Assembly (NCBI GenBank): GCA_041649955.1
Contig: JBAZMD010000001.1
Coordinates: 68,079 to 132,078 of the forward strand
Direction: 5' to 3'
Length of the DNA stretch: 64,000 nt
Source of the DNA: Patescibacteria group bacterium
GTDB lineage: Bacteria > Patescibacteriota > Patescibacteriia > UBA2591 > JAQUPP01
Part shown: positions 30,882 to 48,561 of the stretch, one piece after another
Position numbering within the stretch: the stretch's first letter is position 1
How the letters are laid out: each line of letters begins with the position of its first letter
Translations under genes and position numbers: made by a program
The notes under the pieces: generated by a model
What the model saw: the letters and a program-made list of their open reading frames with translations, nothing else
What the model was told of the DNA's origin: nothing
Database searches by the model: none

Positions 30882-33800
30882 TTATTTCGCGGCTAAGAAT
30901 TTCGGCGTGACTAAATTCTCGGCAAAATCTGAAATTGTTCCGCCGTCAGAATAAGTTTCAGCCTTAGAAATAGTCATTACCGGCACTTTGCTGTAACCAT
31001 TGTTGGTTAAAGCTTTGGCGGATAATTTATATTTCTTGCCGTTCTGAATCAGATAAATCTGAGAAGTTCCCGTGTATTTAACCAATGTTCCATTAGGATG
31101 TTTAGTCGTGGAATCAATCGTATCGCCTAAAGGATAATTGAATTTGGATAATAAATCATCAGGCACCCAAGTCACCAATTTCCATTTCGGATCATTGAAA
31201 AGTTTCTGATAAATCGCTGAAGATTTAACCGGTCTCAATTTGCCGTCAGAAACCATGAATACTGCCGAAGCGCTTAAACCGTGAAGCGATGTAGTCTTGC
31301 CTCTGAATAATGAACCGTCGCGGAATGTCATTGCTACGCCTTCAGAATATTTCGCAAATTCTTCAGAAGTAACCTTCTTGACTGTTGAGAAATTGGATGG
31401 ATAACCCCAAGAGAGATAAACATTAAGATGCGGGAAAACGTGCGCCTTGCCGTCCAAAATCATATAAACCGCGCCTGGTTGAGCAGTACAAGTCGGACAA
31501 ATAACCAAATCTCTATTTTTGAGATTATAAGTTATAACTTCTGCTGTTTCTTCTGATTCAGAAATAATTATTGCTGAAATTATTGAAGAGAGATTAAAAG
31601 TCTTATCTCTGAAACGGATATAAACCACTTTTTCTCCCTTACCAACTGGTAGTAACCAAGAACGAGTAGCTTGATACGGTTCCCAATTAATACCGACAAA
31701 ATCAATCGTATTACTAATCATCATTTCCGCGGCATCAGTAGCAGTAATGTTTAAAGTAACATTTCTGGAAGTAGTTTTCGCGGCACCACTATTTATCTTT
31801 AAGGATAAATCTTTTGGACCAAGATTACCTGCATTGCCACCACCTCCTGAACTGCCACTCATTGGGGTCGAATCTCCGCCAGCAGTAACAAACTTTCCTC
31901 CGGTAATACCGCCAGGTGTAAAATGGTTTGTGGTAACAATTATAACATTATTAGTTGCATCGCGAACCACTGATTTATAATTTTCCCAAGTGTTTGTGGT
32001 GTCATCAAAATATTTTGGCGTAATATCAGCTTCAGTATATCCATAATCTGTAATTAAATCCGGATCATAAGGGAATGTAATCTTTACGTCATTATCAAAT
32101 TGAGTGATTTCTTGACCAGTAGAGTCCTTAGCCGTGAAATCATAGTTAACGCCAAGCGGTTTATCTTTAGCATCCGGTTTCACTGATACCGTAGTTTGAT
32201 TTTCATCACCAACAGTCGGCGTAATAGTTACGGTAACTGTGCCACTGCTGGCTAAAGCTCCGGCTGGAATTTCAAGCGTCAGACCATTTGTAAGTTCAAT
32301 AGTTTTACTGTCTGAAGCGTTGAAAGTCGTAGTTTTAGCTTCAGGAACGGCAAGACCTGTGGTAACAAGAGTTAAATTCTTAGTTTGAGCGCCTGCTACG
32401 GTTATAACTTCAGTCGCAGCGCTTTCATAAAGGACTCCATCAATTTTGGCCGTGGCCTTAACATACCATGTTTCACCGGACTTAACTTTTAAAGTATAAG
32501 TTCCGTCAGAAGCCATTGTACCGGTTCCCTTATCCTCAGACCAAGCTTGTATCATTGCTTGTTTTCTAACGCTGTCTAAAGTAACCTCACCGGTGATAGT
32601 GGCATCTGATAAACTGAATTGAAGATCCTTACCTGTTACATTGGAATCGCCAACCGTCACACTGAGTAATGGCGGGTTAATCAAATCTCTCGCATCCCAA
32701 GGAGGAATACCGGCACCAATTTTGAAAGTACCACTGGTAACATTTAAAGTATAAGTGCCGTCATTTCCGGTAAAAGTACCAACACCCAAACCGCCCGGAC
32801 CCTTAAAATCATTTTTGGTCGTTTCATCACCAAAGTCAGCATAGACCCAAACTCCACTCATACCAACATCATCCGGATCCGTGATTGTACCGCTGATTGT
32901 TTTATCAAGTTTTTTAAGTTGGAAATTACGAGTAGTTGTACTATCGGCAATAACGGTTGATTTTACGTCTTCGGCTACTATTTTGTATTTATCATTATCA
33001 TCTCCAAAATTCATCATCGGATCAATAAAAGCGTCAACGTACCAACTGCCTGCTGAAACTTTTAATGAATATTTATCATTAACACTGCTTGGAGCAAATT
33101 CTGTTTGCGACCAGCCGCCATTTTCTTTATCACCATTGATAAAAGCGCGAACTCCTGTCACAACCGTATCTGTTCCTGCAGTATAAGAACTATCGCTATT
33201 AGTATCAAGATAAAATTTACCTTCAATCGTAGCATTATTCGGTGCCACCACTAAATCAATTTCTTTACATCCGGTTGTTTCGTCAGTACAAGTATCGCTT
33301 TCACCAACAGTAACAGTTTTAGTTACGGTTAAAGTATATTTAGAACCCGGAGGCGTATTTAAACCTAATTCATAACTGCCGAGCGGAACTTTAATTTCAG
33401 TATAACCATTAGCTAATCCTCCGCCGGCAAAACCACCTTTATCCATACCTGCTCCCATTGCTCCGCCGCCACCGCTGCCGCCACCTACAGCTGTTCCACC
33501 ACTACCTGCATCGCCGCTTCCACCTGCCATCATTTTCGGATCACCGAAATCAATAAAATCATTTACTGTCGGATCCGTATCTTTAACCCAAACTCCACCC
33601 CAAATATCGGAAACACGATTACCGTCAGCATCCACTACATTTACTTTAAGCAGACCATCGGCTACCTTTAATAAAAAGTCATTATTATCAGAAGTTTGAT
33701 TGGCGGTTATTGTTACTTGTTGCGGACCACCTTGATAAATATATTGAGTTGACATTGGCATAATCATTACGCCCCAATTTCCTTCACTGACAGTTAAATC

Positions 33801-36800
33801 AAATCTGCCGGTATTAGAATCTGTTTGTGTATTAGCCCAGCCCGGTCCATTCATTTGCCAAGCATTAACCATCACACTGCCAATTGCATTACCGGCCGAA
33901 TCTGTAACCGTTCCTTTAATATGAGCATTCTTTGCTGTTAAAATAAGTGTGCCTGCGTCAGTTGTTTGTTCAGAAATAGCTTTGATTTTAACCGGAGTGG
34001 AACCGCCATAACTCTGACCTTGTTCGCCCCAGTTTGGATTAGCCACCAAATCATAAGTACCAGCTGGAACTTTAAAAGTAAAACGTCCATCAGAATCAGT
34101 ATTGGCACCATTGCCACCACCCATCATACCGCCGCTATTGGCCATTACCCAAGAATTGGCAATTGCCGTAGCACCGGTTGGATCTTTAACTAAACCTGTA
34201 ATAATAGCATTGGCCACTTGAACTTCAAAATCCAAACCAGCATCAAGTATAGTAGCGCCTCCCGGACAATTTCCCACTGTACCGCGGCATTCCGTGCTGC
34301 CATCTTCGGTAAAAGTAGTTCTCTTTGGAGATTCATTATAAACCCAATCAGGTTGACCCATGCTCCAATCAGGATTTACACTTAACCACCAGCCGCCGCC
34401 GGCAAGTTTTAAAGTATATTCACCACTTGAATTTGTTAATGTTTCAAAATGTCCACCTCCCATATCGCGATTAGCTTGAACGCGGGCATTAGCGACTAAT
34501 GCACCGCTGCCCTTTTTAGTCACTGTACCGGTTAAAGTTTTTGTTGGGACAGTTAAGGTAATTAAATTATTTGCCTGAGCCACATTGGCCACTTTAACTG
34601 TGCCTACGTCATCAGCAACATCAACGGTTAATCCGCTTGGTTGAATCCAAGCTTTTTCACCGCCCCAAGGCAAATTGATTTCCATGGATAATCCGGTGGC
34701 ATTGGTTAAACCGCCGATTCGGAAATAACCTTGATCATCAGTTGAAGCACCACCCTGATTTTGCCACATTTGATCATGAATCATAATCCAAGACCATTGG
34801 ACAGGTTGATCATCCGCAGTTCCGGCAACTTCATCCGCACCCGGATTCATTACTCTTCCGGTAACTTGCGGCGTACCAAGTATGAGTTTACCGCCGGTTC
34901 CATAAGTCACACCTAAATCTAAATTAGAAGTTCCGGCAGCTACGGCAGAGGAAATTGTAATATTAGAATATTTTTTTGTTGAATAATTACGATAAACAGC
35001 TTGTTCTTCAGGCGTCCCCCAACGTGGAGCTTCAATTTCTAAAGCATAAGTTCCTGCTGTCACACCACCAAAAGAGAATTGACCGTTCTGATTAGTGTTT
35101 GTGCCATACCAACCACCCGTAGTACCGCCTTGCATTGGTCCTTCAATATGGAAATTAATCCAAGCATTAGCCACAGTTGTAGTAGTATTTGGAATAACAA
35201 CCGTACCGCTAATATTCGGAGTGCTTAAAATTATATTTTTGGTTCTGCTTGATTGAGAACTGGTAACTGTAACATTCTGAACAAGTTTTCTCCCGCAAGT
35301 AATATTTCCGCAACCATTCCAAGGATTTGCTTCCACTTCATAAGTACCAATAGTCACACCGCCAATGGCATAATTTCCATTAGCATCTGTTTGTGACCAT
35401 TGAGAACCGGACATTGAACCTTGTGATCGCATATTAATACCAACATTAGTTGCACCGATATCAGGATAACCCACCGGATCATCGCATTCAGCTTGAGTCA
35501 CAGTTGAATTGTCGTCATGTTTCGGTTTGCAAACACGACCGGTTAAACCATTAACTGTCGGGTCGCTTAACAAAACAAGTAAACTATTATTAGCAATTGT
35601 CAAAGCAGTACCCGGATCTGATACCTCGGTAATAGTAGTTCCGGCAACACTTACTACCATGCCTTGCGGCGCAGCATAAAGACTGCCGTATTGAGTATTG
35701 ACATTAAAATTCCAGCTGCCCGTAGGAACATTTAAACTAAATGTTCCATCACTTTGAGCACTGGCGCCATAACAACTACCGGCTGATTGATAAGGACAAA
35801 AATCAATCCAAATTCCGCTTTGTCCGGTTGTACCGGTTGGATCTTTAACTACACCAGTAACATTGGGTGCTGATAAAGTAAATGCGTCATCATCAACGCT
35901 ATCAAGAGTGTCAGCTTGATCTTTTAAATCATTAGAAGTAGTTGAAGTAATGGAAACTGAAAAATTACCGCTGGCACAAGCACTGCCGCTCGCCGGTTGA
36001 ATTCGAAGATTATAAGTACCAAGTGCCACGCCACCAAGAGAAAAATTACCACTATCATCAGTATTTACACCATACCAAGAACCATCTTTATCCATATTTA
36101 TCCAAGCGACGGTTGTTACACCACCGCATTTTACTTTTCCAAAAACATTTGGCAAAGCAAAAGTTTTATTTCCCAAATCAGTAATTTGTCCATCCGTAAC
36201 ATCAATGGCAAATTCAGCAGTTCTTGTTCTTGGATAACTTCTAAAGTCGCCGCTGTATGGCGGCTCAATTTCTAAAATATAATGAGTACTGTCTGTCACT
36301 CCGCCAAAATAAACTATGCCATCAGCATCGGTCTGTGCCCATTGATTGTAAGACCAATCCATAGTATGAAGACCAATATTGGCATAAGGCACTGGCAAAC
36401 CAGGCTGAGGATTACTTGCCGTAGCAGTATCACCTAAAGTACCAGGAGCCTTAATCGTTACTTTAACATTTTGAGCGGATAAATTGATATTAATGCCGGT
36501 TGCAGTTTGACCTGAAGTTAAACATTGAGAAGTTCTAACGCTTTTATATTGTAAAACTCTGTCTTGATAATCTTTGGGTCTGGCTTCAATTTCATAACAT
36601 TGGCTGCTGGTATCATTTGGAACATAAAGTTTCCATGTTCCGTTTGGACCGGTTGTTGTTCTTTGCTCATAGTCCCAAGTATAAGGACGAGCAACCACTT
36701 CTACGCCTTCCAATAATGTTGCGCCACTGGGAGATTTAACCGTACCGGAAAGAGTGGCTGTTCTAAAAGCTTGGGTGGCTAGTGTTGCCACTGAACCCAC

Positions 36801-37808
36801 CGTAGCTGTTTGACTGCTTAACTTGGAGGGCGCCACATAAGTCGCGCCGGCCGGGGTGCTGAATTGTATATTATAACTTCCGGTCGCACTTAATAATAAA
36901 GCATATTTGCCATTGGAATGAGTTTCCCCAAGCACGACATTTCCCATTTGTCCGGGCGTAAAAGATTCAACCTGGACTCTATCTATGTCACCGGCCGTAT
37001 CTGAGGTAAGACTACCTATAAATATGCCTTGCGTGCTATTCCAAATTATAAATGGTCGTGAATCTGAAACACGACGCGTATTCAAATCACTAATTATTAT
37101 ATCTACGCGGCCGTTTAATCCGGTTGGAATTGTAGCCGTAAGTTCAGTAGCTCCGGCAGTTGCAGGCGTGGATGTTACACTTCCTCCGTTAAAATTCCAA
37201 TATATTTCTGTTGCGTCAGTTGAGGTGGAATAATTAGAACCGGTAATCGTTACTGTATCGCCGACATTGCCGCACGGATAACCATTGCAAAGATCAGACT
37301 CAGTAGTATTGGTTATATAATTGATAATCGGATCAATAGAAGCGCTAACAGTATTGTTGGCAGTAAAATCTTCTATAGTTTGAGTTCCTGCTAAATTTTT
37401 AATATCTCCGGCTGTCATCTGCCAAGTTTGTCCTTCGCTTAATTTTAAATTTTTTAAACCGTAAATTCTTAAACGATAATCATTCTCGCCCGCCTGAATA
37501 CTTTGAGTTGACATATCATAAGGACTGAATCGACTTAATGTTCTGTCTGTTAATCCCGCTCCTGTTTCAAAAATAAAATTACGCAAATCTGTCGCGTAAT
37601 TGGTTGCACTTCCTGCTTCGGTTGTTGAAGATGGGGTTGTTTCTGCGGAAAATTGTCCGTTGAATGTAATTTCCGCTGAAGTTGTCGAGACCGTAATATC
37701 GGTCACGGCTATTGGTGCTAATGCACTCACTGATGTGGACAGCCCCATTGACCACAACATGGTCGTGGCTGTCACAAAAATTGAAAAAAACTTTTTTGTG
37801 TTGTTCAT
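30882..37808 (-). CDS. giant (2308 aa) secreted surface protein built of many beta-sandwich repeats (CarboxypepD_reg/Cna-B-like) with a C-terminal module shared with 8760-10340
   Basis: Signal peptide MNNTKKFFSIFVTATTMLWSMGLSTSVSALA. Recurrent GxV...G.Y.L repeat units. C-terminus HPNGTLVKYTGTSQIYLIQNGKKYKL. Confidence 0.65.
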   Translation of the reverse strand: MNNTKKFFSIFVTATTMLWSMGLSTSVSALAPIAVTDITVSTTSAEITFNGQFSAETTPSSTTEAGSATNYATDLRNFIFETGAGLTDRTLSRFSPYDMSTQSIQAGENDYRLRIYGLKNLKLSEGQTWQMTAGDIKNLAGTQTIEDFTANNTVSASIDPIINYITNTTESDLCNGYPCGNVGDTVTITGSNYSTSTDATEIYWNFNGGSVTSTPATAGATELTATIPTGLNGRVDIIISDLNTRRVSDSRPFIIWNSTQGIFIGSLTSDTAGDIDRVQVESFTPGQMGNVVLGETHSNGKYALLLSATGSYNIQFSTPAGATYVAPSKLSSQTATVGSVATLATQAFRTATLSGTVKSPSGATLLEGVEVVARPYTWDYEQRTTTGPNGTWKLYVPNDTSSQCYEIEARPKDYQDRVLQYKSVRTSQCLTSGQTATGININLSAQNVKVTIKAPGTLGDTATASNPQPGLPVPYANIGLHTMDWSYNQWAQTDADGIVYFGGVTDSTHYILEIEPPYSGDFRSYPRTRTAEFAIDVTDGQITDLGNKTFALPNVFGKVKCGGVTTVAWINMDKDGSWYGVNTDDSGNFSLGGVALGTYNLRIQPASGSACASGNFSVSITSTTSNDLKDQADTLDSVDDDAFTLSAPNVTGVVKDPTGTTGQSGIWIDFCPYQSAGSCYGASAQSDGTFSLNVPTGSWNFNVNTQYGSLYAAPQGMVVSVAGTTITEVSDPGTALTIANNSLLVLLSDPTVNGLTGRVCKPKHDDNSTVTQAECDDPVGYPDIGATNVGINMRSQGSMSGSQWSQTDANGNYAIGGVTIGTYEVEANPWNGCGNITCGRKLVQNVTVTSSQSSRTKNIILSTPNISGTVVIPNTTTTVANAWINFHIEGPMQGGTTGGWYGTNTNQNGQFSFGGVTAGTYALEIEAPRWGTPEEQAVYRNYSTKKYSNITISSAVAAGTSNLDLGVTYGTGGKLILGTPQVTGRVMNPGADEVAGTADDQPVQWSWIMIHDQMWQNQGGASTDDQGYFRIGGLTNATGLSMEINLPWGGEKAWIQPSGLTVDVADDVGTVKVANVAQANNLITLTVPTKTLTGTVTKKGSGALVANARVQANRDMGGGHFETLTNSSGEYTLKLAGGGWWLSVNPDWSMGQPDWVYNESPKRTTFTEDGSTECRGTVGNCPGGATILDAGLDFEVQVANAIITGLVKDPTGATAIANSWVMANSGGMMGGGNGANTDSDGRFTFKVPAGTYDLVANPNWGEQGQSYGGSTPVKIKAISEQTTDAGTLILTAKNAHIKGTVTDSAGNAIGSVMVNAWQMNGPGWANTQTDSNTGRFDLTVSEGNWGVMIMPMSTQYIYQGGPQQVTITANQTSDNNDFLLKVADGLLKVNVVDADGNRVSDIWGGVWVKDTDPTVNDFIDFGDPKMMAGGSGDAGSGGTAVGGGSGGGGAMGAGMDKGGFAGGGLANGYTEIKVPLGSYELGLNTPPGSKYTLTVTKTVTVGESDTCTDETTGCKEIDLVVAPNNATIEGKFYLDTNSDSSYTAGTDTVVTGVRAFINGDKENGGWSQTEFAPSSVNDKYSLKVSAGSWYVDAFIDPMMNFGDDNDKYKIVAEDVKSTVIADSTTTRNFQLKKLDKTISGTITDPDDVGMSGVWVYADFGDETTKNDFKGPGGLGVGTFTGNDGTYTLNVTSGTFKIGAGIPPWDARDLINPPLLSVTVGDSNVTGKDLQFSLSDATITGEVTLDSVRKQAMIQAWSEDKGTGTMASDGTYTLKVKSGETWYVKATAKIDGVLYESAATEVITVAGAQTKNLTLVTTGLAVPEAKTTTFNASDSKTIELTNGLTLEIPAGALASSGTVTVTITPTVGDENQTTVSVKPDAKDKPLGVNYDFTAKDSTGQEITQFDNDVKITFPYDPDLITDYGYTEADITPKYFDDTTNTWENYKSVVRDATNNVIIVTTNHFTPGGITGGKFVTAGGDSTPMSGSSGGGGNAGNLGPKDLSLKINSGAAKTTSRNVTLNITATDAAEMMISNTIDFVGINWEPYQATRSWLLPVGKGEKVVYIRFRDKTFNLSSIISAIIISESEETAEVITYNLKNRDLVICPTCTAQPGAVYMILDGKAHVFPHLNVYLSWGYPSNFSTVKKVTSEEFAKYSEGVAMTFRDGSLFRGKTTSLHGLSASAVFMVSDGKLRPVKSSAIYQKLFNDPKWKLVTWVPDDLLSKFNYPLGDTIDSTTKHPNGTLVKYTGTSQIYLIQNGKKYKLSAKALTNNGYSKVPVMTISKAETYSDGGTISDFAENLVTPKFLAAK

Positions 37809-38785: not shown

Positions 38786-39673
38786 TTATTTTTTTCTTAA
38801 TTGATAAATGGTGTAGAATTTGGAAAAAGCGGGATGTTTAACCGGCTCTTTTATTTTTTTAACAATCGTAAAATATTTTTTAACCAGCCGGTCAAACATT
38901 TTTTCCGGCAGCATAGTAACGCGATGCGGCTGATTGTAAAAATCAAAAGTCATTAAATCATATTCTTTTTGAGTGATTTCTTTGTTTTTTAATTTCTCGC
39001 CTAAAAACAGATTAAATTTGTTCATCTCGGTAGTGTATTCTTTCTTGTTGTAAAATCGCGGATCTGAATAAGCGCAGCTTTCCCAAATATAAATTTTATT
39101 ATTCAATGATTTGAAATAATTCGGCTGGCGCTTGCATTTTTCAATCACGCTTTCCGCGGTCTGCAATATCGGACTCGCGTTGGTAACGGTAATAATCAAT
39201 TCTCCTCCCGGTTTCAGAATAGTTTTCATTGCCTTAAAAAATTGTTCGTACAACTCAAGATTGACCAAATTATTGGTTACGGCATGGCCGATAATGCAAT
39301 CAAATGTTTTGGGAAGAAAATATTTTGTCGCTTCTGTCCAAAGACCGTTGGTTATTTTTTCTTTGCTTTCTATTTTTTTTAAACCGTTCATTGTTTCAAC
39401 CATATTTTGGCTGAATTCCAAAAGCGTGACCTTAAATTTCATTTTTGCCAGACAATCCCGAATGGCCGGCGTACAGCCTAAAACCAAGGCCTTATTGCCT
39501 GATTTCTTTTTAATGATTTTTAAAATTTTAGCGCAAGCGGCAATATGCTTTTTTGAAGGCACAAAAGGCGGCGGAATTTTGGCATAGGTTTGAGTATACC
39601 CTTCTTGCCACACTTTTTTATTTATTGCTTCTTTTTCCATGTTAGTTATTTTTTTAAAAAATAAATTGGGCAT
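38786..39673 (-). CDS. methyltransferase-fold protein, paralog 2 of 3 (motif LVLGCTPAIRD)
   Basis: 295 aa. Alignment described under paralog 1. Confidence 0.5.
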   Translation of the reverse strand: MPNLFFKKITNMEKEAINKKVWQEGYTQTYAKIPPPFVPSKKHIAACAKILKIIKKKSGNKALVLGCTPAIRDCLAKMKFKVTLLEFSQNMVETMNGLKKIESKEKITNGLWTEATKYFLPKTFDCIIGHAVTNNLVNLELYEQFFKAMKTILKPGGELIITVTNASPILQTAESVIEKCKRQPNYFKSLNNKIYIWESCAYSDPRFYNKKEYTTEMNKFNLFLGEKLKNKEITQKEYDLMTFDFYNQPHRVTMLPEKMFDRLVKKYFTIVKKIKEPVKHPAFSKFYTIYQLRKK

Positions 39674-40479
39674 TGGTGAACAAAAGGATGATCTGTACCG
39701 TATTTAACGGCAGAAATCTTGAAATATTTTTTCATCATTTTCTCCCCTTCTTTTTCCGGCAGAGTCCACCAAGTTTTGCCCAACGGCCATTGTTGATGAA
39801 AAATCTTAATCAATTTGGCTATTTGCTTTTTTCTGGCCGCGTTCTTTTCATCTTGCCAAGATTTTTTAAGCGCTGAACTGATGCCGTCCGTACTCGTACT
39901 ACTGTCTTTTGCTTTCCAAACAACAAATAATCCGCCATAAGCAAATTCACTGATACTTTCTTGATTAAATTTTTTCTTAATCACGAGATTAATAAATTCT
40001 TGAATTGATTTTTTGGGAAAAATAGGAAAAAGATGGCGGGTAATAAAACAACCGCCCGGCTTTAAAACCTCTCTGATTTTAGCCAAAAATTTCGGCTGTA
40101 ATTTAATCGGAATATTACAAATAACAAAATCTCCCAGAACAAAATCATAATAATTTTGAGCCACGGGCATAGTCAGCCAGCCGGCCTTAATCCAAGTTTC
40201 CTTGTCTGCATTTTTTTGATATTTCACCCATTTGGTCATAGCCATTAGCATATCCAAACTAATATCAACGCAAGTCACTTCTGCTTTTTGGCGATGCACC
40301 AAGTCGCGAAATTCGGGCGTTCCGCCTAAAATCAAAATTTTAGCCGGTTTTTTATGTTGAGCAATGAATTTTTCTATAATCTGGCATTCGCTTTTTGACG
40401 GCCGGTTGGGCGGAGTATAAACTTGCCATTGATGTGCCATTTTTTGCGCGTGATAATAAGCTACTTTTGGTTCTGCCAT
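39646..40479 (-). CDS. methyltransferase-fold protein, paralog 3 of 3 (motif ILILGGTPEFRD)
   Basis: 277 aa. Overlaps the next gene by 28 bp. Confidence 0.5.
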   Translation of the reverse strand: MAEPKVAYYHAQKMAHQWQVYTPPNRPSKSECQIIEKFIAQHKKPAKILILGGTPEFRDLVHRQKAEVTCVDISLDMLMAMTKWVKYQKNADKETWIKAGWLTMPVAQNYYDFVLGDFVICNIPIKLQPKFLAKIREVLKPGGCFITRHLFPIFPKKSIQEFINLVIKKKFNQESISEFAYGGLFVVWKAKDSSTSTDGISSALKKSWQDEKNAARKKQIAKLIKIFHQQWPLGKTWWTLPEKEGEKMMKKYFKISAVKYGTDHPFVHQCPIYFLKK

Positions 40480-40505
40480 AATTGTCGATTTAGATCCGCC
40501 AACTG

Positions 40506-40658
40506 GCGGAGAAATAAATTTTCGCTACAATTTATGAGCACCCTGCTTCAAACCTCTAAACAAAATCAGTTCAAAGATAGCGTAAGCCGAAGGCGTTTCC
40601 ATGAATTAAATTAATTATTTTTTCACGAACCTTCTTCGGGTTTGGGGCGTGGGTCGCC
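40506..40658 (+). repeat. intergenic repeat element, family B copy 3
   Basis: Aligns with copies 1 and 2 (GAAATAAATTTTCGCTACAA...TAAGCCGAAGGCGTTTCC...CGGGTTTGGGGCGTGGGT). Embedded between two co-oriented methyltransferase genes. Confidence 0.55.
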
Positions 40659-40669
40659 ATAAAATAATT

Positions 40670-41506
40670 TTAATTATATTTTTGAAGAATAAAATAAAAA
40701 TATTTTCTTTTTCCATTTTTAAATGAATTGCATAACTCTGAATCTTTAACTCCCGCGAATTGCTTGCCGAGATTTTGCAAAAATTTCGGCAAAAATTGCC
40801 TAACAAGTTTCATCCTTCTTTCATTATCCAAATTCAATGCCCTAAAAACATTTTCCGTTATATCTTCTTTTTTTATTATTTTCAATTTTGATTTATTAAT
40901 GGAGTCAAAAAAAGATTGAATTAATTCCCGGCTTCTGAAATCGGCGAATAAAAAATATCCTTTAGGTTTTAATATTCTTTTCGCTTCCTGTAAAAATTTA
41001 TTAAAATTAGGGTAAGAATGAGAAGATTCTATGTTTATCGCCGCGTCAAAACTTTCATCTTCAAAAGGAATTTTTATGGCGTTTCCGTATTCAAATTTTA
41101 AATTTTTTTCATAATGATGCTCTCTGTCAAATTTTATTTCTGCTTTGGAATTATCTATGCCGACGATCAGTTTGGGCTTGAAATATCTGGCAATGAAAGA
41201 AGTTCCGCCGCCCTTCCCGCATCCTACTTCTAAAACTTTTTTATCTTTTATATTAATAGAACTCACTACCTTATGATACAACTGGGCGCAATATCTGTTT
41301 TCTTCATCAATTTTTTCCAATCTTAATTTTTCCCGGTATTGATATCCGTAATTCAAAAAAATCACCTCTCCTTTTGAATCAATTTTTGAAAGATGATTAT
41401 ACCACTTATTCACCACTAAAGACTGGCCCTTAAGATAAATCTTGTTGACTAAATTAAAAAAATTTAATATCTTTATTAATTTTTTAATCCAATCTTTCTT
41501 CGTCAT
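40670..41506 (-). CDS. class I SAM-dependent methyltransferase
   Basis: 278 aa. Motif I VLEVGCGKGGG and motif post-II IESSHSY. Confidence 0.7.
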   Translation of the reverse strand: MTKKDWIKKLIKILNFFNLVNKIYLKGQSLVVNKWYNHLSKIDSKGEVIFLNYGYQYREKLRLEKIDEENRYCAQLYHKVVSSINIKDKKVLEVGCGKGGGTSFIARYFKPKLIVGIDNSKAEIKFDREHHYEKNLKFEYGNAIKIPFEDESFDAAINIESSHSYPNFNKFLQEAKRILKPKGYFLFADFRSRELIQSFFDSINKSKLKIIKKEDITENVFRALNLDNERRMKLVRQFLPKFLQNLGKQFAGVKDSELCNSFKNGKRKYFYFILQKYN

Positions 41507-41513
41507 ATATTTT

Positions 41514-42962
41514 TTATTTTCGCCCTCTTTTAATTATTATAACCTTCCCGTGTGTTGCGTCAACTTCTATCAAATCACCGTCTTTCAAAACCTTAGTGGC
41601 GATTTTGGTGCCGATAATACACGGCTTTCCCATTTCACGGGCAATGATAGCCGCATGACAAGTTAATCCGCCATCATTTGTAATTATTGCTTTAGTTTTT
41701 GAAATTGCCCCCATAAAATCTGGAGTTGTCATAAAAGTAACAAGAATTTCTCCTTTTTTCATTTTAGATATTTCGGCCGCATTTCTGATAATTCTAACTC
41801 TACCCTTAACATAACCGGCCGAGGCTGACACACCTTTAATAATCCGTATTAAAGAATCTTTAACAATTTTATTCTTGGGTATAAAAATTTTTATTTTTCC
41901 TTTATGTAATCTTATAAAATAATTATTGTTTCTTTTTTTAAGCTCGGGGGTGGAAATTAAAAGTTTTCCAATTTTTAAACTGGCAATTAATTCATCTGAA
42001 GTCAAATTAGTTAAATCAGTATAATCAACAGAAAGTCGCTTGCCAACTTCTGAAAAAAAGAATCTCATTAAGTATTCCGAGTTTTCTATGAAAGAAAGCA
42101 TTTCTGTTCTATAAAAAGACAGATTAGCTAAATCTTTAAATAATTTTTTTGTAATTTTATCAATTGCATATTTTTTATATAATGCCTTCTTGTCAGAAGC
42201 TAAATCAATTTTCATTTTGGGATAATTTTTTTTCTTTAGAGCAATTTTTATTTCCTCAATGGTGTCTATAATTGTAGGGTATTTATCAGTAGTAAAAAAG
42301 ACACAACCCATTCTCACATATTTTTGATGAAATTTATTTATTATTTTTTTTAGTCTTTTGGGGGAATTATCAATTATTTCATTCAATTTTCTATTAAACA
42401 ATTTTTGGTATTTCGCTCTTCTGATAAAATTAACGATTTTTTGCAAATCATCCTGCTTTTTTTCGATATAATTTTTTCTAGAGGACTGCATTAATATCCC
42501 AAATTCTTCATCTTCTTGTTTTTTATTAACAACTGATAGCAAATTTTTAGTAAGTGCATCAATGCTAAAATTTCCTGTATACACATAACCTATAAAACGC
42601 GCATAATAATCTGTCCAAGCTGTAAATAATTTTATCAATTTTCTATTTGAATACTTCTCTATTTTATAGGAGCTGACCTTTTTACTGAATTTATATAATT
42701 TCCTTCCATATTTTTTGTATTCAGCAAAAAGTTTTTTTAATTTACCATTTTTAATATTCTTCAATATTTCATGATGCGCAACCTCTATATCTTCTAACCC
42801 AAAATAAGCTTGAGCTTTAATCTGACTATTTATATATTTATAATCTTGGATTATCCTGCTATGCAAGGGTGTTTTAGAAACATAACCCGCTAAGGCGTAT
42901 TTAGTGGCTATATATCTGGGAAGCAGAGGTAGGGCCTTTTGTGTTGTAGCTATCCATTTCAT
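41514..42962 (-). CDS. PEP-utilizing-enzyme mobile (phospho-His swivel) domain protein with a novel ~380-aa N-terminal domain (P1)
   Basis: C-terminus KGEILVTFMTTPDFMGAISKTKAIITNDGGLTCHAAIIAREMGKPCIIGT matches the PEP-utilizers domain with its catalytic His. Confidence 0.65.
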   Translation of the reverse strand: MKWIATTQKALPLLPRYIATKYALAGYVSKTPLHSRIIQDYKYINSQIKAQAYFGLEDIEVAHHEILKNIKNGKLKKLFAEYKKYGRKLYKFSKKVSSYKIEKYSNRKLIKLFTAWTDYYARFIGYVYTGNFSIDALTKNLLSVVNKKQEDEEFGILMQSSRKNYIEKKQDDLQKIVNFIRRAKYQKLFNRKLNEIIDNSPKRLKKIINKFHQKYVRMGCVFFTTDKYPTIIDTIEEIKIALKKKNYPKMKIDLASDKKALYKKYAIDKITKKLFKDLANLSFYRTEMLSFIENSEYLMRFFFSEVGKRLSVDYTDLTNLTSDELIASLKIGKLLISTPELKKRNNNYFIRLHKGKIKIFIPKNKIVKDSLIRIIKGVSASAGYVKGRVRIIRNAAEISKMKKGEILVTFMTTPDFMGAISKTKAIITNDGGLTCHAAIIAREMGKPCIIGTKIATKVLKDGDLIEVDATHGKVIIIKRGRK

Positions 42963-42980
42963 AATTTAATTTTAAATTAT

Positions 42981-43925
42981 TTACAAAGTCGTAATCGGCC
43001 TACTTTGTACGATATAGAACTTTTTATTTTCCAAAGCCCACTCAATATCGCAGGGAAATTTATAATGTTTTTCAATTTGAGCGCACAATTTAGCCAATTC
43101 AATAATTTGTTTGTTGTTGAATTTTTGTTTAGCACGCAATTTATTCGGCACTTTTACCCATTCGCTGCCAATGCCTGATTTTTTCTGAACAATCATTTTT
43201 TCTTGCTCTGAAATATTAATATCAATAATTTTCCATGTTTTTTTATTAATCACATAACTGTCAGGCGTAATATGTCCGCCGACAATCGCCTCTCCCAAAC
43301 CCCAACCGGCTTCAATAATCAGCTGGTTTTTATCTTTTGTAACAGGATGAGTGGTAAAACAAATGCCTGAAATTTCCGATTGAATCATTTTCTGAATTAC
43401 CACGGCCACGGAAACTTTTGATTTTCTCATTCCTTGTTCCCGGCGATAAACAATTGCTCTTTGAGTAAAAAGCGAAGACCAGCAATCTTTAACTCGACCT
43501 AATAAATTCTGCCGAGTTGTATTGAGATAACTTTCCAGTTCTCCGGCCCATGAAGCGACTGACGAATCTTCGGCTGTCGCGCTGCTCCGAACCGCCACAT
43601 GTTTTGCTTTTAATTTATCAAAATCAATTAAAATTTCTTGCTGTAAATCTTTAGGCATTTTTGCGTCATGAATTAAATCGCGAATTAATTTTGATGCCTG
43701 ATCAACCGAATTAACATCTTTATAATTCACTTTATTTAAAGCCGATTCAATTTCAACATCTATATCAGTTTCTGTTAAAAATCTTTCAAAGGCATCAGCC
43801 AAAACCACAAATCCCGGCGGCACTTGAATTCCCGCTTGTGTCATTTCTCCCAACGACGCCCCCTTGCCTCCGGCAATTCCAACATCTTTTTTTGATAATT
43901 GTTTAAAATTTTTAGTAAATTTCAT
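42981..43925 (-). CDS. stand-alone PPDK_N / PEP-synthase N-terminal ATP-binding (ATP-grasp) domain protein
   Basis: 314 aa. LSKKDVGIAGGKGASLGEMTQAGIQVPPGFVV matches the PpsA/PPDK/Rph nucleotide-binding N-terminus. Confidence 0.75.
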   Translation of the reverse strand: MKFTKNFKQLSKKDVGIAGGKGASLGEMTQAGIQVPPGFVVLADAFERFLTETDIDVEIESALNKVNYKDVNSVDQASKLIRDLIHDAKMPKDLQQEILIDFDKLKAKHVAVRSSATAEDSSVASWAGELESYLNTTRQNLLGRVKDCWSSLFTQRAIVYRREQGMRKSKVSVAVVIQKMIQSEISGICFTTHPVTKDKNQLIIEAGWGLGEAIVGGHITPDSYVINKKTWKIIDINISEQEKMIVQKKSGIGSEWVKVPNKLRAKQKFNNKQIIELAKLCAQIEKHYKFPCDIEWALENKKFYIVQSRPITTL

Positions 43926-43945
43926 ATATTTTTATTTTAATTTAT

Positions 43946-45397
43946 TTATTTATTTTTTAAAATTTTGACTAATCCATGATTTGCATTAACTTCCACCAAA
44001 TCACCGTCTTTCAAAACCTTAGTGGCAATTTTGGTGCCAACCAAGCACGGAATCCCTAATTCCCTTGAAACAATAGCCGCGTGGCAAGTTAATCCTCCTT
44101 CGTCGGTAATAACCGCCCCTGCTTTTTTTATTGCCACAATAAATTCAGGCGAAGTCATTGGGGCAACCAAAATTTCACCTTGCTTCATTTTATTTAGATT
44201 ACGGGGTGTTAATAATATTCTGACTCTTCCCTGAATTTTACCGCAACCGGCGCTGACAACCATACCATTTATTATCCCAGATTCTCTATTGACTTCCTTT
44301 TTCAAGAAAGGCCTGATTAAATTTATCTGTTTTTTCCCGCTCTTGAGAGTCAAAACATTTTTATAATAATGAATTAAGGCAAATTTTTTTCTATTTGCTA
44401 TTTCTTTAGAAGATACTTTTGCGCCATTTTTTAATAATTTGATAATTTCATTCGGCCAATAAAACATTAAATCGGAAAAATTAATTTTTTTTCTTCTGGA
44501 AATCTCTTTCAAGAATAAATCAACATAATGATTGGCGATAAAAATTTCTTTTTTCCTCGTATCCTGCCACCAGATTGAAGCCGAAAGCCTTTTAACTGTC
44601 TTAATGGTTTTTGCGTTAAGTTTATATTTTCTGAATAATTGATTTTTTTGAAAAATTATTTTTCTCGGCAAATTTTTGATTTCCTTTATTTTTTGATTAA
44701 CTTGCCTGATGCCTGATAATATTTTTTTAAAATACTCCGCTTTCAATTGTTTTTGTTCAAAATAACTGTTTCTAATCCAAAAATATCGTCGGATATGTTT
44801 TTCAATCAATTGATCAAATTTTTTTGTTCCCTGATATTTTTTTATTTCCAATAAATCCAATTCTTCTTTTTGATAAAAAGAAAGATTTTCCGGAGCGGCT
44901 AATTTTTCAAGGGCTGAAATAAATTCTTTTTGGTTGTCAATTTGCTTGGATAATTCTTCTTTTAAAATTTCTTCACCGCCCAAATTGGCAAGTTCCGGAA
45001 CTAATCCCACTCCCCAAAAATTTATATACAAATTGTGCCATTTATTGTAAGTATCGGCGAAGGCCTTATCAGTCAATAAACCGAGAGATTTTTCTGAAAT
45101 TTTCGTCTGGAAATTTTTTAATTTATTCAAGGCTTTTTTATAATCAGCTTGAACTTTTTTAAAATTTAAATCATTCAAAATCCATGTATTAAAATGTTTT
45201 CTTCCGGCTGTCCTGACATTTTTTTCATCGGAAATAAAAGTCATTTTATCTTTTGTAAAATAAAACAAAATCTCGGGCCAGTGATATTTGTAATAACGGG
45301 GCAAGTTCGTGGCAATCCCTATCATAAAATAGGATATATAAATCATTCTCCCGTCAATCGGTCCCCAAATCCAAAGTTTTTTTTGTGAATTAATCAT
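43946..45397 (-). CDS. PEP-utilizing-enzyme mobile domain protein, paralog P2
   Basis: C-terminus QGEILVAPMTSPEFIVAIKKAGAVITDEGGLTCHAAIVSRELGIPCLVGT. Confidence 0.65.
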   Translation of the reverse strand: MINSQKKLWIWGPIDGRMIYISYFMIGIATNLPRYYKYHWPEILFYFTKDKMTFISDEKNVRTAGRKHFNTWILNDLNFKKVQADYKKALNKLKNFQTKISEKSLGLLTDKAFADTYNKWHNLYINFWGVGLVPELANLGGEEILKEELSKQIDNQKEFISALEKLAAPENLSFYQKEELDLLEIKKYQGTKKFDQLIEKHIRRYFWIRNSYFEQKQLKAEYFKKILSGIRQVNQKIKEIKNLPRKIIFQKNQLFRKYKLNAKTIKTVKRLSASIWWQDTRKKEIFIANHYVDLFLKEISRRKKINFSDLMFYWPNEIIKLLKNGAKVSSKEIANRKKFALIHYYKNVLTLKSGKKQINLIRPFLKKEVNRESGIINGMVVSAGCGKIQGRVRILLTPRNLNKMKQGEILVAPMTSPEFIVAIKKAGAVITDEGGLTCHAAIVSRELGIPCLVGTKIATKVLKDGDLVEVNANHGLVKILKNK

Positions 45398-46868
45398 TGT
45401 TTAAATGTTTTAAAATTTTAACAATTCCCCTGTTCGCATCCACCTCCACCAAATCCCCGTTACGTAATGTCCCTGTTAAACCGTGAATTCCTACTATACA
45501 AGGTGTTTTCAACTCTCGCGAAACAATGGCCGCATGAGAAGTGATACCACCCCTTTCGGTTAAAATCGCTTTTGCTTGCTTCATAAGAAAGATATAATCC
45601 GGCGTAGTGTGGGAGGCAACCAATATAGCTCCCTTTTTAAATTTAGAAAAATCTCTTTCTGATTTTATAATTAAAACTTGGCCGATAACGTTTCCAGGAT
45701 AAACGGCTGCCCCGCAAAGAACCTTTTTCTTTTCTTGGCGCAATAAAATTGATCTTATTTTCAGAGCTGACTCACCTTCTAATAATGAGTAATCTTTATC
45801 AATCCCCAAAAAGATAATGGTGGATTTTTGTCTTTTTTTAATAAGATTTAAAAAATTATTTTTATTTTTTAAATTTATCTGCAACTGCTCTTCCCAAGTT
45901 AACCATCTGAATTTTTCGTAATCCAGCGCATAATTTTTTGCCACTCTTTTAAGCCAAGTCTTAATGGGTATTGTTGTTTGTAAATTAAAAGCTTTTCTTT
46001 GGTCTCTTAATTTATACAGAATATCAAGAAAATTAATCAATTTTTTAATATTTTCAGGTTTTGTTTTTAAAATTTTTCTCTTCTTTTTTCTTTGTTTTTC
46101 CGAACATTTTATTTTTTCCCACTCATTTTTAAAATTCTGTGCCAAATCTATACCATGTTCTATAAATAAAATTTCTTTTGGCAAAGCGTGCGACTTAAAA
46201 TTTAAAAATACCCAACCCCATTTTTGAGCGTGAAAAATAATTTTTTTACTTAAAATCTCATATTTTGCCAAATCTCGTACTCCGCTTTTTAGCTTTTTAA
46301 ATTCTTCAGACGGCAAACTTTTAATCAATTCTAATAAATTTTTATGTTCTTCCATTACAAAAGAGTCCTGTAAGGGCGTCATCAGCAACATTAATTCTTT
46401 CTCGTCTTTAATGGTTTCTTTGATTTTTATTTCCAAATATTTTTCAACAGCTTCACAGGTATTCATTAATAAAGCCATCCACTTCTGAATAACTTCTACA
46501 AAATTCGTATATATTTTTTTGTCTATCTTTGCTGATTTTTCTAATCTATCAAGAGCTTGCCAATTTTTTTTCGTCAGATTAATAAATTCTTTTTCTAATT
46601 GAATTGGATTATTCTTATATTTCAAATAAAATACCTGGCCCAATTTTAATAATGATTTTTTATCCAAACAATAATAAAAAGAATCTTTGTCATAAATTTG
46701 AATTAATTTAGCGCAGATTCCAAACATTTTTTTCTGAAGAGTACAGCTTCTCTTAAAACCCAAGTCCGTCCACCAAAAAAAATCAGCGTCATATTTGCCG
46801 ATTTCAAGATCGTCTTTTATCTTTTTTATTTTATTGATAAAGCTAGACACAAGTTTCTTTTCGGACAT
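45390..46868 (-). CDS. PEP-utilizing-enzyme mobile domain protein, paralog P3
   Basis: C-terminus KGAILVASHTTPDYIFLMKQAKAILTERGGITSHAAIVSRELKTPCIVG. 8-bp overlap with P2. Confidence 0.65.
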   Translation of the reverse strand: MSEKKLVSSFINKIKKIKDDLEIGKYDADFFWWTDLGFKRSCTLQKKMFGICAKLIQIYDKDSFYYCLDKKSLLKLGQVFYLKYKNNPIQLEKEFINLTKKNWQALDRLEKSAKIDKKIYTNFVEVIQKWMALLMNTCEAVEKYLEIKIKETIKDEKELMLLMTPLQDSFVMEEHKNLLELIKSLPSEEFKKLKSGVRDLAKYEILSKKIIFHAQKWGWVFLNFKSHALPKEILFIEHGIDLAQNFKNEWEKIKCSEKQRKKKRKILKTKPENIKKLINFLDILYKLRDQRKAFNLQTTIPIKTWLKRVAKNYALDYEKFRWLTWEEQLQINLKNKNNFLNLIKKRQKSTIIFLGIDKDYSLLEGESALKIRSILLRQEKKKVLCGAAVYPGNVIGQVLIIKSERDFSKFKKGAILVASHTTPDYIFLMKQAKAILTERGGITSHAAIVSRELKTPCIVGIHGLTGTLRNGDLVEVDANRGIVKILKHLNND

Positions 46869-46872
46869 ATTT

Positions 46873-47787
46873 TTATGGTTGTAAAATATCTTCTGTTCGG
46901 CCGTTAATGGAAATAGTCACATTTTGAACGGTCGGAAATTGTTTTAATGTTTCAATAATTTGGGCTCTGATGGCTGATACTTTACAAGAACCGCCGACTT
47001 GAAATTCCAATTGCTTGTCAAAATCAACTTTTGCCGTTCCATTGTTAATGGTCAATTTTTGAATTTTTACGCCCGAATTGATACTGGAAAAAAATCCTTG
47101 CGCTTTTTCCGCTTCAGTCGCTCCTTTTAATAATTCTTCCAAAGCAGCCCGGCCGATTGCTTCTGTTTTAATTATTTTTCTTTCAACCGGAAAAACTTTA
47201 TTGCAGGAAATTTCCGGATCTAATTTATTATTATTGAAATAAACTTTTATTGTCGTCATTTCAGTTGGATTGATAACAACCGGCACTCGCAATTCATCGG
47301 CATTTTGCGGCAAACCCGAAGGATTATCTTTTTCTAAAATTAAAATACCTTTAGTTTCGATTGGTGCGTTAAATTGCAAGGTGGCCGTGAAAGGCACAAA
47401 ATTTTCCGTCATCCAATCGCTTTTGGCCTGAGCAATTCCTTTGGCAATTTCTGCACCCGAAGAATCCAAAAGTTTAATTGGAAAACTTGCTTCAAAAAAC
47501 CAATTTCCTCTCGCCTCGCCTTCAATTTCCAAAGGACTGGAAATAATTTCATCCGGCTGAGGTTTTGTCACTTTTATATCAGCGGTTTTATTTTCTGTCT
47601 GTTGATTATTTTTTACAGCACTATTGCACGATTGAGTCGGCATTGACGCGCTGGGATTTCCATGTTTTATCCATTGGCCGTTTGAACAAATCCAATTATC
47701 TTCCGGTCCGCCGATTAAAAATCTTAGAACTAAAACAATAATTACTAAAATCAACGGGCTTAATATTATTAATCTTTTTTTTATCAT
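46873..47787 (-). CDS. membrane-anchored protein with an Ig-like (Gmad2-type) domain plus a GerMN domain
   Basis: 304 aa. N-terminal transmembrane segment. C-terminal half matches the GerMN pattern (VYFNNNKL...GATEAEKAQGFFSSI...VKIQKLTINNGTAKVDF). Confidence 0.5.
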   Translation of the reverse strand: MIKKRLIILSPLILVIIVLVLRFLIGGPEDNWICSNGQWIKHGNPSASMPTQSCNSAVKNNQQTENKTADIKVTKPQPDEIISSPLEIEGEARGNWFFEASFPIKLLDSSGAEIAKGIAQAKSDWMTENFVPFTATLQFNAPIETKGILILEKDNPSGLPQNADELRVPVVINPTEMTTIKVYFNNNKLDPEISCNKVFPVERKIIKTEAIGRAALEELLKGATEAEKAQGFFSSINSGVKIQKLTINNGTAKVDFDKQLEFQVGGSCKVSAIRAQIIETLKQFPTVQNVTISINGRTEDILQP

Positions 47788-47813
47788 ACTTATCAGCTTA
47801 TCTACTTATTAAC

Positions 47814-48086
47814 TTATCTACTTACCCAAAAAATGTCAGCTTCTTTTTCCATTTTATCCAATCTGGTGTAATAATCCGGAAATTCGTTTAAGTGCGCCAA
47901 AGCAATTTTACCGGTGGTTGTCAAATCATCATTGGTCACATTGGTGTGATCGTCACGTAAGCCGTGTTCTAGTTCCACATCCATTCCCATTCTAAATTGC
48001 TCAACATCAAATTTAGTCCAATCAATACCCAATGACTCGCCTATTTGCTTGGCTTCTTCAATTGTAAAACTTTTTCTTAATTCCAT
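47814..48086 (-). CDS. hypothetical protein (90 aa), first gene of the operon
   Basis: ORF with candidate promoter TTGACT-17-TAAGAT upstream at about 48095-48123. Confidence 0.4.
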   Translation of the reverse strand: MELRKSFTIEEAKQIGESLGIDWTKFDVEQFRMGMDVELEHGLRDDHTNVTNDDLTTTGKIALAHLNEFPDYYTRLDKMEKEADIFWVSR

Positions 48087-48210: not shown

Positions 48211-48561
48211 CTAATTGTCCCGTCCGTATCCGCCTCTGCTTCCACCGCCGTATCCACCGCGGCTTCCGCCACCACCACCAAATCCTCTTCCACCACCGGT
48301 TCTTGGTCTTTCTTCTCTTGGTCTAGCTTCGCTGACCTTAAGATTGCGGCCGTCGATTGGTTGGTTGTTGAACATTTCAATGGCTTTTGCGGCTTCGTCT
48401 TCTGTGGACATTTCCACAAAACCGAATCCTTTGCTTCTACCGGAATATTTATCGGTAATAATACTCGCTGAGACAACTGTTCCGGCCTGGCCGAAAGTTT
48501 CTTTCAATTGATCGTCAGTGAGATTATATGATAAATTTCCGATGTAAAGTTTCTTTTCCAT
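48211..48561 (-). CDS. RNA-binding protein (RRM domain) with a Gly/Arg-rich tail
   Basis: 116 aa. RNP-2 LYIGNL and RNP-1 KGFGFVEM. Tail GGGRGFGGGGGSRGGYGG. Confidence 0.85.
   Translation of the reverse strand: MEKKLYIGNLSYNLTDDQLKETFGQAGTVVSASIITDKYSGRSKGFGFVEMSTEDEAAKAIEMFNNQPIDGRNLKVSEARPREERPRTGGGRGFGGGGGSRGGYGGGSRGGYGRDN

Follow-up and report, generated by a model that had tools for sequence, protein, structure and literature searches.

One ATP-grasp subunit beside three swivel subunits: a probable hub-and-spoke dikinase of the rifampin phosphotransferase type in a Patescibacteria genome

The stretch of DNA analysed here, referred to as the window, comprises 64,000 nucleotides of contig JBAZMD010000001.1 (positions 68,079 to 132,078; assembly GCA_041649955.1, Patescibacteria group bacterium) and has a composition of about 33% G+C. 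Four adjacent genes on its minus strand encode G, a stand-alone ATP-grasp protein, and S1, S2 and S3, three paralogous proteins each ending in a phospho-histidine swivel domain (Table 1). The four are interpreted as a hub-and-spoke, two-component, ATP-dependent small-molecule dikinase of the rifampin phosphotransferase (Rph) type, with one charger, G, and three acceptors, S1 to S3; the probability of this reading is put at about 0.7. The S2 and S3 open reading frames (ORFs) overlap by 8 bp, and the remaining gaps in the cluster are 20, 18, 7 and 4 bp. No further copies of G or S are present in the 64-kb window. The deposited protein identical to S1 is labelled 'PEP-utilizing enzyme [Patescibacteria group bacterium]', PEP being phosphoenolpyruvate, so that the source is a member of the candidate phyla radiation.

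Table 1. Genes and sites of the cluster and its neighbours (window positions)
Feature	Position	Strand	Length	Description
MT3	38786-39673	minus		methyltransferase-fold gene (Pfam, NCBIfam)
MT2	39646-40479	minus		methyltransferase-fold gene (Pfam, NCBIfam)
MT1	40670-41506	minus		methyltransferase-fold gene downstream of S1 (Pfam, NCBIfam)
S1	41514-42962	minus	482 aa	third swivel paralogue, same architecture as S2 and S3
His436 codon of S1	41655..41657	minus		catalytic His (GGLTCHAAI)
G	42981-43925	minus	314 aa	stand-alone ATP-grasp (PPDK_N) subunit, proposed ATP-binding 'charging' module
S2	43946-45397	minus	483 aa	Rph-type substrate-binding domain (residues ~1-370) and C-terminal phospho-His swivel domain
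His439 codon of S2	44081..44083	minus		catalytic His (GGLTCHAAI)
D279-x-R281-K282 of S2	44552..44563	minus		most conserved N-domain motif, candidate second-phosphotransfer site
S3	45390-46868	minus	492 aa	second swivel paralogue, same architecture, N-domain very divergent
His445 codon of S3	45534..45536	minus		catalytic His (GGITSHAAI)
Gmad2 + Germane protein	46873-47787	minus		upstream neighbour of S3 (Pfam)
DUF5661 protein	47814-48086	minus		upstream neighbour (Pfam)

G contains a PPDK_N domain only, which scores 339.8 bits in Pfam against a cutoff of 27 and covers residues 17-313. It aligns end to end with the ATP-grasp domain of the archaeal PEP synthase 8a8e (259 bits), over residues 5-314 with residues 6-316 of Rph-Lm (5fbs, 204 bits), and over residues 2-312 with residues 23-354 of the HpeI crystal structure 9GOJ (178 bits, E 2e-51). 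Mutagenesis has shown that Lys22, Arg117 and Thr136 of Rph matter for the first phosphotransfer (Stogios et al., PMC4844700). These residues align with Lys21, Arg113 and Ser132 of G, the serine being a conservative change.

The PEP-utilizers domain of Pfam (cutoff 23.1) is found at the C-terminus of all three S proteins, with 85.9 bits in S1 (402-472), 89.5 bits in S2 (405-475) and 89.8 bits in S3 (410-481). The catalytic histidine motifs are intact, GGLTCH in S1 and S2 and GGITSH in S3, and a Pfam search found no PEP/pyruvate-binding TIM-barrel domain (PEP-utilizers_C) in G, S1, S2 or S3. S1 and S2 are 32% identical over 425 aa (E 7e-53). BLASTP detects similarity between S2 and S3 at the C-terminus only, but comparison of the two families with hhalign makes them homologous over their full length (probability 100%, E 6e-61, 456 aligned columns).

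Sequence searches with the S proteins reach only the swivel domain and a short stretch of the rifampin (RIF)-binding domain of Rph. AlphaFold2 (AF2) models of S2 and S3 were built on family alignments and have mean predicted local distance difference test (pLDDT) values of 94.5 and 93.1, respectively, with a predicted template modelling score (pTM) of 0.92 for S2. A Foldseek search of the PDB with the S2 model gave Rph-Lm (5fbt/5fbu) as the top matches (E 6e-14, query-normalised TM-score 0.61); the S3 model likewise matched Rph-Lm best (E 8e-15, TM-score 0.55-0.56). Rph-Lm is the sole full-chain match of either model in the PDB, and all others cover the swivel domain only. The architecture of S1 was assigned by sequence alone, from its identity to S2. 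The S proteins thus consist of an Rph-type substrate-binding domain followed by a swivel domain and, together with G, make up a split Rph-like dikinase.

Much of this had been anticipated by the original prediction, made from the DNA letters and a list of their ORFs. It described four adjacent minus-strand genes spaced by an 8-bp overlap to 20-bp gaps, with which the ORF coordinates agree, and a G protein that is nothing but a PPDK_N/ATP-grasp domain, as the single Pfam match and the retained ATP-site residues of Rph bear out. C-terminal swivel domains with the catalytic histidine and no TIM barrel were likewise borne out by Pfam scores far over the cutoff, as was the description of the proteins as separated modules of an Rph/PEP-synthase-type dikinase by the Pfam domains and by the match of the S2 and S3 models to Rph. 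The N-terminal domains were said to differ among the three copies; they do diverge by BLASTP, though S2 and S3 are homologous throughout by profile-profile comparison.

An alignment of 205 paralogues separates a strongly constrained from a weakly constrained half of the S protein. The catalytic histidine is invariant (100%) and many columns of the swivel domain are 90-100% conserved, far above the N-domain, in which few positions are kept (in S2 numbering W207, D279, R281, K282, E298, R302, E317 and R336). Such a difference would be expected if many acceptor domains dock on one ATP-grasp partner. Threonine stands two residues before the histidine (GGxT[CS]H) in 85% of the paralogues. R336 is conserved in 87% and is also kept in Rph, within the aligned region. 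The aspartate, arginine and lysine of the D-x-R-K motif are conserved in 66%, 84% and 71%, respectively, and D279/R281/K282 of S2 aligns with D289/R291/K292 of S3. Linear extrapolation would put the motif at about residues 668-671 of Rph, where it may be equivalent to Arg666/Glu667/Lys670; this equivalence is extrapolated only. A residue-by-residue placing on Arg666/Glu667 was abandoned, because the hidden Markov model (HMM) alignment covers Rph only from S2 residue 312 onwards, which corresponds to Rph residue 701.

The S family is large. Databases contain over 5,800 homologues of S2, nearly all of about 480 aa with PF00391 as the only domain, from Patescibacteria, Woesearchaeota and Nanoarchaeota, and a single-sequence search of 1.84 billion representatives with the S2 N-domain alone returned 1,148 clusters at 50% identity. 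At E <= 1e-40 the N-domains sort into several orthogroups, each represented once per locus, and many singletons. The S2-type orthogroup is the largest, with one orthologue in each of 16 loci from both the candidate phyla radiation (CPR) and the DPANN archaea (named for Diapherotrites, Parvarchaeota, Aenigmarchaeota, Nanoarchaeota as well as Nanohaloarchaeota); S2 of the window is 42-47% identical to Woesearchaeota and Nanoarchaeota proteins of this type. The S3 orthogroup has about 20 full-length relatives (35-46% identity) and that of S1 is small, with about 6-10 (40-46% identity). Because each belongs to its own conserved orthogroup, S1, S2 and S3 are, as judged from their sequences, three distinct conserved specificities and neither recent duplicates nor fragments.

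These data bear on the possibility that the genes are decayed fragments of one or more fused PEP synthase or Rph genes, which the original prediction had itself named, or a three-way-split PEP synthase with its PEP/pyruvate domain elsewhere. Single-chain fused relatives do exist, in three loci (L039, L058 and L066; 750-820 aa) and among the matches to the S2 N-domain (about 740-790 aa), and G and the swivel domains are nearest in sequence to archaeal PEP synthase. But none of the four ORFs is broken and their ends are conserved, an intact orthogroup of about 480 aa exists for each S protein, and three different N-domains with one G cannot arise by fragmentation. The N-domains, moreover, have the fold of the Rph substrate-binding domain and not a TIM barrel, and the scores to PEP-synthase equivalog models fall far under the cutoff. 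Decay or a three-way split is therefore very improbable, and the genes are not pseudogenised.

Three side observations concern the arrays and S-type proteins. A family of about 283 aa without a Pfam match occurs inside five arrays (L007:11458-12300, L001:3201-4052, L002:10468-11346, L026:6099-6929 and L036:7151-7969), four of which also carry a close S2-type orthologue, L026 having a weaker relative only. 'Short' swivel proteins of about 335-390 aa are found in runs (L048:1286-5458, L057:13542-15699, L061:4596-10573 and L082:12432-15953); their N-terminal parts of about 250 aa lie outside the reach of the N-domain HMM and may represent a second class of acceptor domain. Two S-type proteins, P0015 (L084:694-3078) and P0154, have an extra 330 aa or so with a recorded match to PF02350 (UDP-GlcNAc 2-epimerase). 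As a hint at an amino-sugar substrate these fusions were set aside: the match in P0015 is 'faint' and the C-terminal extension of about 330 aa has no relatives among the loci.

The combination of one G with several S proteins was followed beyond the window. Scanning the GTDB species genomes gave 77 loci, and 81 distinct loci were counted overall; the DNA of each reached no more than 10 kb beyond the matched gene in either direction and frequently fell short of that at contig ends. ORFs were called in all of them and searched with the N-domain HMM, the swivel HMM and G. The loci of the GTDB scan belong almost all to CPR bacteria (Buchanan-, Uhr-, Nealson-, Sacchari-, Davies-, Moran-, Levy-, Magasanik-, Taylor-, Woese-, Falkow- and Komeilibacteria) or to DPANN archaea (Nano-, Woese- and Micrarchaeota and Iainarchaeum). 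Over the 81 loci swivel units number 303 and ATP-grasp domains 37, the latter being thus about eight times rarer; exactly one G is found in 35 loci, and two in one locus only. A stand-alone G accompanies at least three swivel units in 18 loci, and 18 of 32 stand-alone G ORFs are 310-329 aa long, most of the shorter ones ending at a contig or locus edge. Some of the arrays span 5-17 kb, and there are up to 12 swivel units per locus. In a locus from Nealsonbacteria (L012), 11 swivel proteins accompany one G, two loci (L010 and L028) have eight with one G each, another (L019) has ten swivel proteins, and Woesearchaeota loci have seven to nine.

In several genomes the two components are joined in one chain. 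An uninterrupted ORF of 3,761 aa in Woesearchaeota (L054:6266-17551, plus strand) encodes one G and, after it, eight swivel units, with the histidine motif in each; single ORFs elsewhere fuse G to four (L081:6920-12904) or two (L078:4433-7897) swivel units. In P0124 an S3-type protein and, after it, G (PPDK_N) form one chain, and P0407 combines PF00391 and PF01326. Besides these, ORFs that fuse three to four swivel units without G, with the histidine motif in each unit, occur at L061:1-4599 and L069:2076-5396. At L002:13895-15354, and in the same form in L003, an N-domain-only ORF of 350 aa overlaps a swivel-only ORF of 136 aa by 4 bp directly upstream of G, and a 90-aa acylphosphatase gene follows G; the pair reflects a three-way split or else a frameshift.

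The one-to-three relation of ATP-grasp and swivel proteins that had been read from the window, one G and three S, therefore has its like in the arrays elsewhere, and a shared ATP-grasp subunit serving several swivel proteins, as originally proposed, is the best reading of the 37 and 303 domains and of the G-S fusions. The comparative support for a shared kinase module is good, as something that we infer from sequences and not as a demonstration. The large-scale expansion of one-to-many arrays in CPR and DPANN, polyprotein forms included, appears to be undescribed; no published description was found in the full-text literature searched, CPR/DPANN papers included, a result that does not prove that none exists.

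By homology to Rph, PpsAB and HpeHI, the reaction would proceed in two stages. G would bind ATP, and S1, S2 or S3 would dock on G by its swivel domain so that the catalytic histidine of that domain could attack the beta-phosphate, giving a His-pyrophosphate and AMP; hydrolysis of the gamma-phosphate would leave His~P. The swivel would then return to the helical domain at the N-terminus of the same protein, a domain folded like the rifampin-binding domain of Rph, and the phosphate of His~P would pass to a hydroxyl of the substrate bound there. The net reaction would be ATP + X-OH + H2O -> AMP + Pi + X-O-P. As each S protein has a distinct N-domain, each would presumably have a distinct substrate, probably a small molecule, with one ATP-grasp gene serving all three and G presumably charging every S protein. 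Promiscuous docking of several S proteins on one G would be plausible.

Several observations weigh against this scheme. In 45 of the 81 loci no G lies within the locus DNA, and pairing there is assumed. S1 is without the D-x-R-K motif and has YRTEML at that position of the multiple alignment, so that the second transfer in this protein may take another course or no longer occur. The phosphatases that recur in the arrays (see below) could make the phosphorylated species an intermediate or a signal and not the end product. In the two-component relatives that have been characterised the ratio is strictly 1:1, and no stable complex forms between HpeH and HpeI (PMC12167813).

G could accordingly be dedicated to one S protein or to none, the others being charged from PEP via another enzyme, from acetyl phosphate or polyphosphate, or by G-independent phosphotransfer. 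The loci without G would fit such an arrangement, as would HpeH, which is described as transferring phosphate by itself between a phospho-product and another substrate (PMC12167813). It is hard to reconcile with the in-frame fusion of one G to two, four or eight swivel units, with the fusion of S3-type and other S proteins to G, or with the strong constraint on the swivel domains of all paralogues; nor does the 64-kb window contain a second ATP-grasp or PEP-binding domain. A dedicated G is therefore improbable, and one G shared by S1, S2 and S3 is retained as the preferred reading.

The four genes lie within a tightly packed series on one strand. As judged from gene spacing, an operon of about 9.3 kb (38786-48086) is plausible, and the three methyltransferase genes are probably co-transcribed with S1-G-S2-S3. 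MT2 and MT1 are separated by 190 bp, and the sole clean minus-strand terminator-like site, at 38576-38559, lies downstream of MT3. MT1, MT2 and MT3 are class-I methyltransferase-fold proteins according to Pfam, MT1 being nearest in NCBIfam to phthiotriol/fatty-acid O-methyltransferases (238 bits, under the 300-bit cutoff). Of the promoter-like sites in the region, the strongest (48728-48701) lies ahead of a gene for an RRM-type glycine-rich RNA-binding protein (48211-48561, minus strand), which stands directly upstream of the DUF5661 gene; the transcription unit may thus start there and not at 48086. A fourth methyltransferase-fold gene (27197-28054, minus strand), about 11 kb from the operon, is 31% identical to MT2 and 25% to MT3 by tblastn. 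Two giant minus-strand ORFs of 2,392 aa (10987-18165) and 2,308 aa (30882-37808), the latter with a signal-peptide-like N-terminus and long repetitive Thr/Gly/Ser-rich regions, probably encode cell-surface proteins; large proteins of this kind are typical of episymbiotic CPR.

From these neighbours the original prediction had proposed a system of phosphorylation combined with methylation or inactivation. That proposal is not supported by comparison with other loci: relatives of the methyltransferases, the Germane protein and the DUF5661 protein lie near arrays in only 0-2 of 80 other distinct loci (Germane in two, DUF5661 in none). Since they seldom recur, these neighbours say little about function, apart from possible local co-expression, and the methyltransferase/GerMN/DUF5661 context was dropped as a functional clue.

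The same comparison bears on a biosynthetic role like that of PigC, RedH and HapC, in which S would phosphorylate a carbonyl or hydroxyl for condensation or elimination and, with the methyltransferases, build or tailor a small molecule or lipid-like compound. The tight packing of the operon on one strand, the similarity of MT1 to O-methyltransferases whose targets are hydroxyl or carboxyl groups of lipids, and the matches of the PigC and RedH models, strong to G (248 and 239 bits) and weak to the S C-termini, all speak for it. But the association with methyltransferases is not conserved, the scores are all far under the curated cutoffs, and the operon contains no condensation, non-ribosomal peptide synthetase/polyketide synthase (NRPS/PKS) or precursor-peptide genes. 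Biosynthetic clusters, besides, do not look like these arrays, which reach 12 units and are flanked by unrelated housekeeping genes, and this role has only a small chance of being the correct one.

Pfam scans of 121 non-dikinase ORFs inside the arrays and of 110 immediately flanking ORFs showed that phosphohydrolases are the only recurrent companions, the remaining neighbours being heterogeneous housekeeping genes. His_Phos_1 was found in 10 of the 121 and 3 of the 110, and HAD and HD in 3 and 4 each. The most recurrent non-dikinase gene inside arrays encodes a family of about 320 aa, with His_Phos_1 at the N-terminus and a C-terminal part of about 200 aa that carries no annotation, which jackhmmer extended to 13 loci (e.g. 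L035:10917-11801 and L028:11477-12382). HAD hydrolases recur in six loci and HD hydrolases in five; a low-molecular-weight phosphatase and an acylphosphatase near arrays are single cases. A conserved PpsC-like accessory subunit was looked for among 466 neighbouring ORFs and rejected, their BLAST clusters reaching at most six loci.

Phosphohydrolases as the sole recurrent neighbours would suit a signalling or phosphorelay function, with the N-domains as ligand sensors and His~P read or reset by His_Phos_1, HD or HAD phosphatases in a SixA-like manner. Yet neither output domains nor response-regulator-like partners were seen among the array and flank ORFs, the characterised homologues are all enzymes, and the retention of the charged D-x-R-K and R336 in the N-domain is consistent with catalysis. 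Signalling is accordingly given a slighter chance than either biosynthesis or a dedicated G.

An association with defence or phages was also considered and rejected. PADLOC gave no defence-system match for G, S1, S2 or S3, and the methyltransferases match only the generic methyltransferase part of mad2. Of 80 matches in viral contigs, 77 are confined to the swivel domain; the other three (L090, L091 and L102) are longer but weak, running from query residue 251 or 265 onwards at 26-27% identity.

For the hub-and-spoke dikinase itself, the role tentatively preferred, at less than even odds, is the phosphorylation of several scavenged host-derived hydroxylated metabolites, which would be trapped or activated in this way, together with the phosphohydrolases of the arrays. 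It echoes the scavenging role proposed for HpeHI (PMC12167813). Inactivation of toxic compounds is a second guess and an unlikely one, the recurrent phosphatases arguing somewhat against it. Extended to the whole family, the proposal would be that CPR and DPANN share a charger with up to a dozen substrate-specific phospho-His enzymes and associated phosphohydrolases as a major route to trap, activate or neutralise host-derived small molecules; we regard this as doubtful. If it is true, the system, in places fused into polyproteins, may stand in for conventional kinases that are absent from these ultra-small symbionts with their poor biosynthetic capacity, and 'PEP synthase/PPDK' calls (PPDK, pyruvate phosphate dikinase) in their metabolic reconstructions are often wrong.

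CPR and DPANN genomes are roughly 1 Mb in size. Arrays of 5-17 kb in such genomes, and the size of the family, point to a function of importance in episymbiotic life. A one-to-many dikinase would be a new organisational principle for swivel-domain enzymes and would provide a natural collection of substrate-binding domains, all mounted on one phosphotransfer scaffold. The family is publicly labelled 'PEP-utilizing enzyme' or 'phosphoenolpyruvate synthase/pyruvate phosphate dikinase', and PEP-synthase-type labels can create false gluconeogenesis or PEP-synthase steps in reconstructions of CPR and DPANN metabolism. The mechanism is ordinary; the surprise is the scale and the distribution.

The separation of modules is itself not new. 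The original prediction did not recognise the split arrangement as a described system, but the two-component Rph homologues PpsAB (phenylphosphate synthase), CreHI and HpeHI have been characterised biochemically, one subunit being the counterpart of Rph's ATP-grasp domain and the other that of its RIF-binding and swivel domains (PMC12167813). Their histidine is pyrophosphorylated by ATP, the gamma-phosphate is hydrolysed and the beta-phosphate is passed to a phenolic substrate, and HpeHI loses its activity when the catalytic histidine is mutated (PMC12167813). They are 1:1 pairs encoded in aromatic-catabolism gene clusters (PMC12167813) of free-living Actinobacteria and Proteobacteria, HpeHI in Rhodococcus rhodochrous, PpsAB in Thauera aromatica and CreHI in Corynebacterium glutamicum. 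HpeH, CreH and PpsA are about 600-640 aa long and about 45% identical to one another, the HpeH model too matches only Rph over the full chain, and in all three, as in Rph, a methionine stands two residues before the histidine (PMC12167813).

The cluster in the window resembles these pairs in its separate ATP-grasp polypeptide, G matching HpeI over its whole length, and in a second subunit whose C-terminal swivel, with the histidine, comes after a substrate-binding domain like that of Rph; by analogy, the expected chemistry would also be the same, ATP giving AMP, Pi and a phospho-product via His~PP and His~P. It differs from them in ratio, which is 1:3 here, up to about 1:12 elsewhere and 37:303 over the 81 loci, in its CPR/DPANN hosts and in having no catabolic context. 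The S proteins are also shorter, about 480 aa, and have threonine in place of methionine. Models of the PRK08296 type, of about 600 aa, which we take to represent the PpsA/HpeH type, match only the last 105 or so residues of S1-S3. Split Rph-like dikinases are thus already known, and it is the one-to-many hub-and-spoke scale and the distribution that look new.

Rph itself (5FBS/5FBT/5FBU, 5HV1) has the same three modules, and its ATP-site residues are kept in G. It works by a swivel mechanism (PMC4844700), and the same would be expected here. Rph is, however, a single chain of about 865 aa in the order ATP-grasp, RIF-binding domain and swivel, whereas the modules are split in the window; S is 14-17% identical to it in structural alignment and has a smaller N-domain of about 370 aa. 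The equivalog cutoffs for Rph are missed (NF041857, 50-286 bits against 999; NF000283, 31-196 against 1700), and nothing here points to rifamycin as the substrate.

To PEP synthase, G and the swivel of S2 are closer in sequence (259 and 95 bits, respectively, to 8a8e) than to Rph or HpeI, and the T-[CS]-H motif is PEP-synthase-like. In PEP synthase and PPDK the threonine two residues before the histidine is a regulatory phosphorylation site. Unlike these enzymes, the cluster has no TIM barrel, its swivel is C-terminal and not central, and its modules are split; NCBIfam PpsA models score 106-355 bits against cutoffs of 598-740. PigC, RedH, HapC and other single chains of the PRK06241 type share the Rph-like three-module design, and their NCBIfam models give 239-248 bits for G and 57-65 bits for the S C-termini against cutoffs of 1300-1350. 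They differ in being single chains in which phosphorylation drives a condensation, and the window offers no pyrrole-pathway context.

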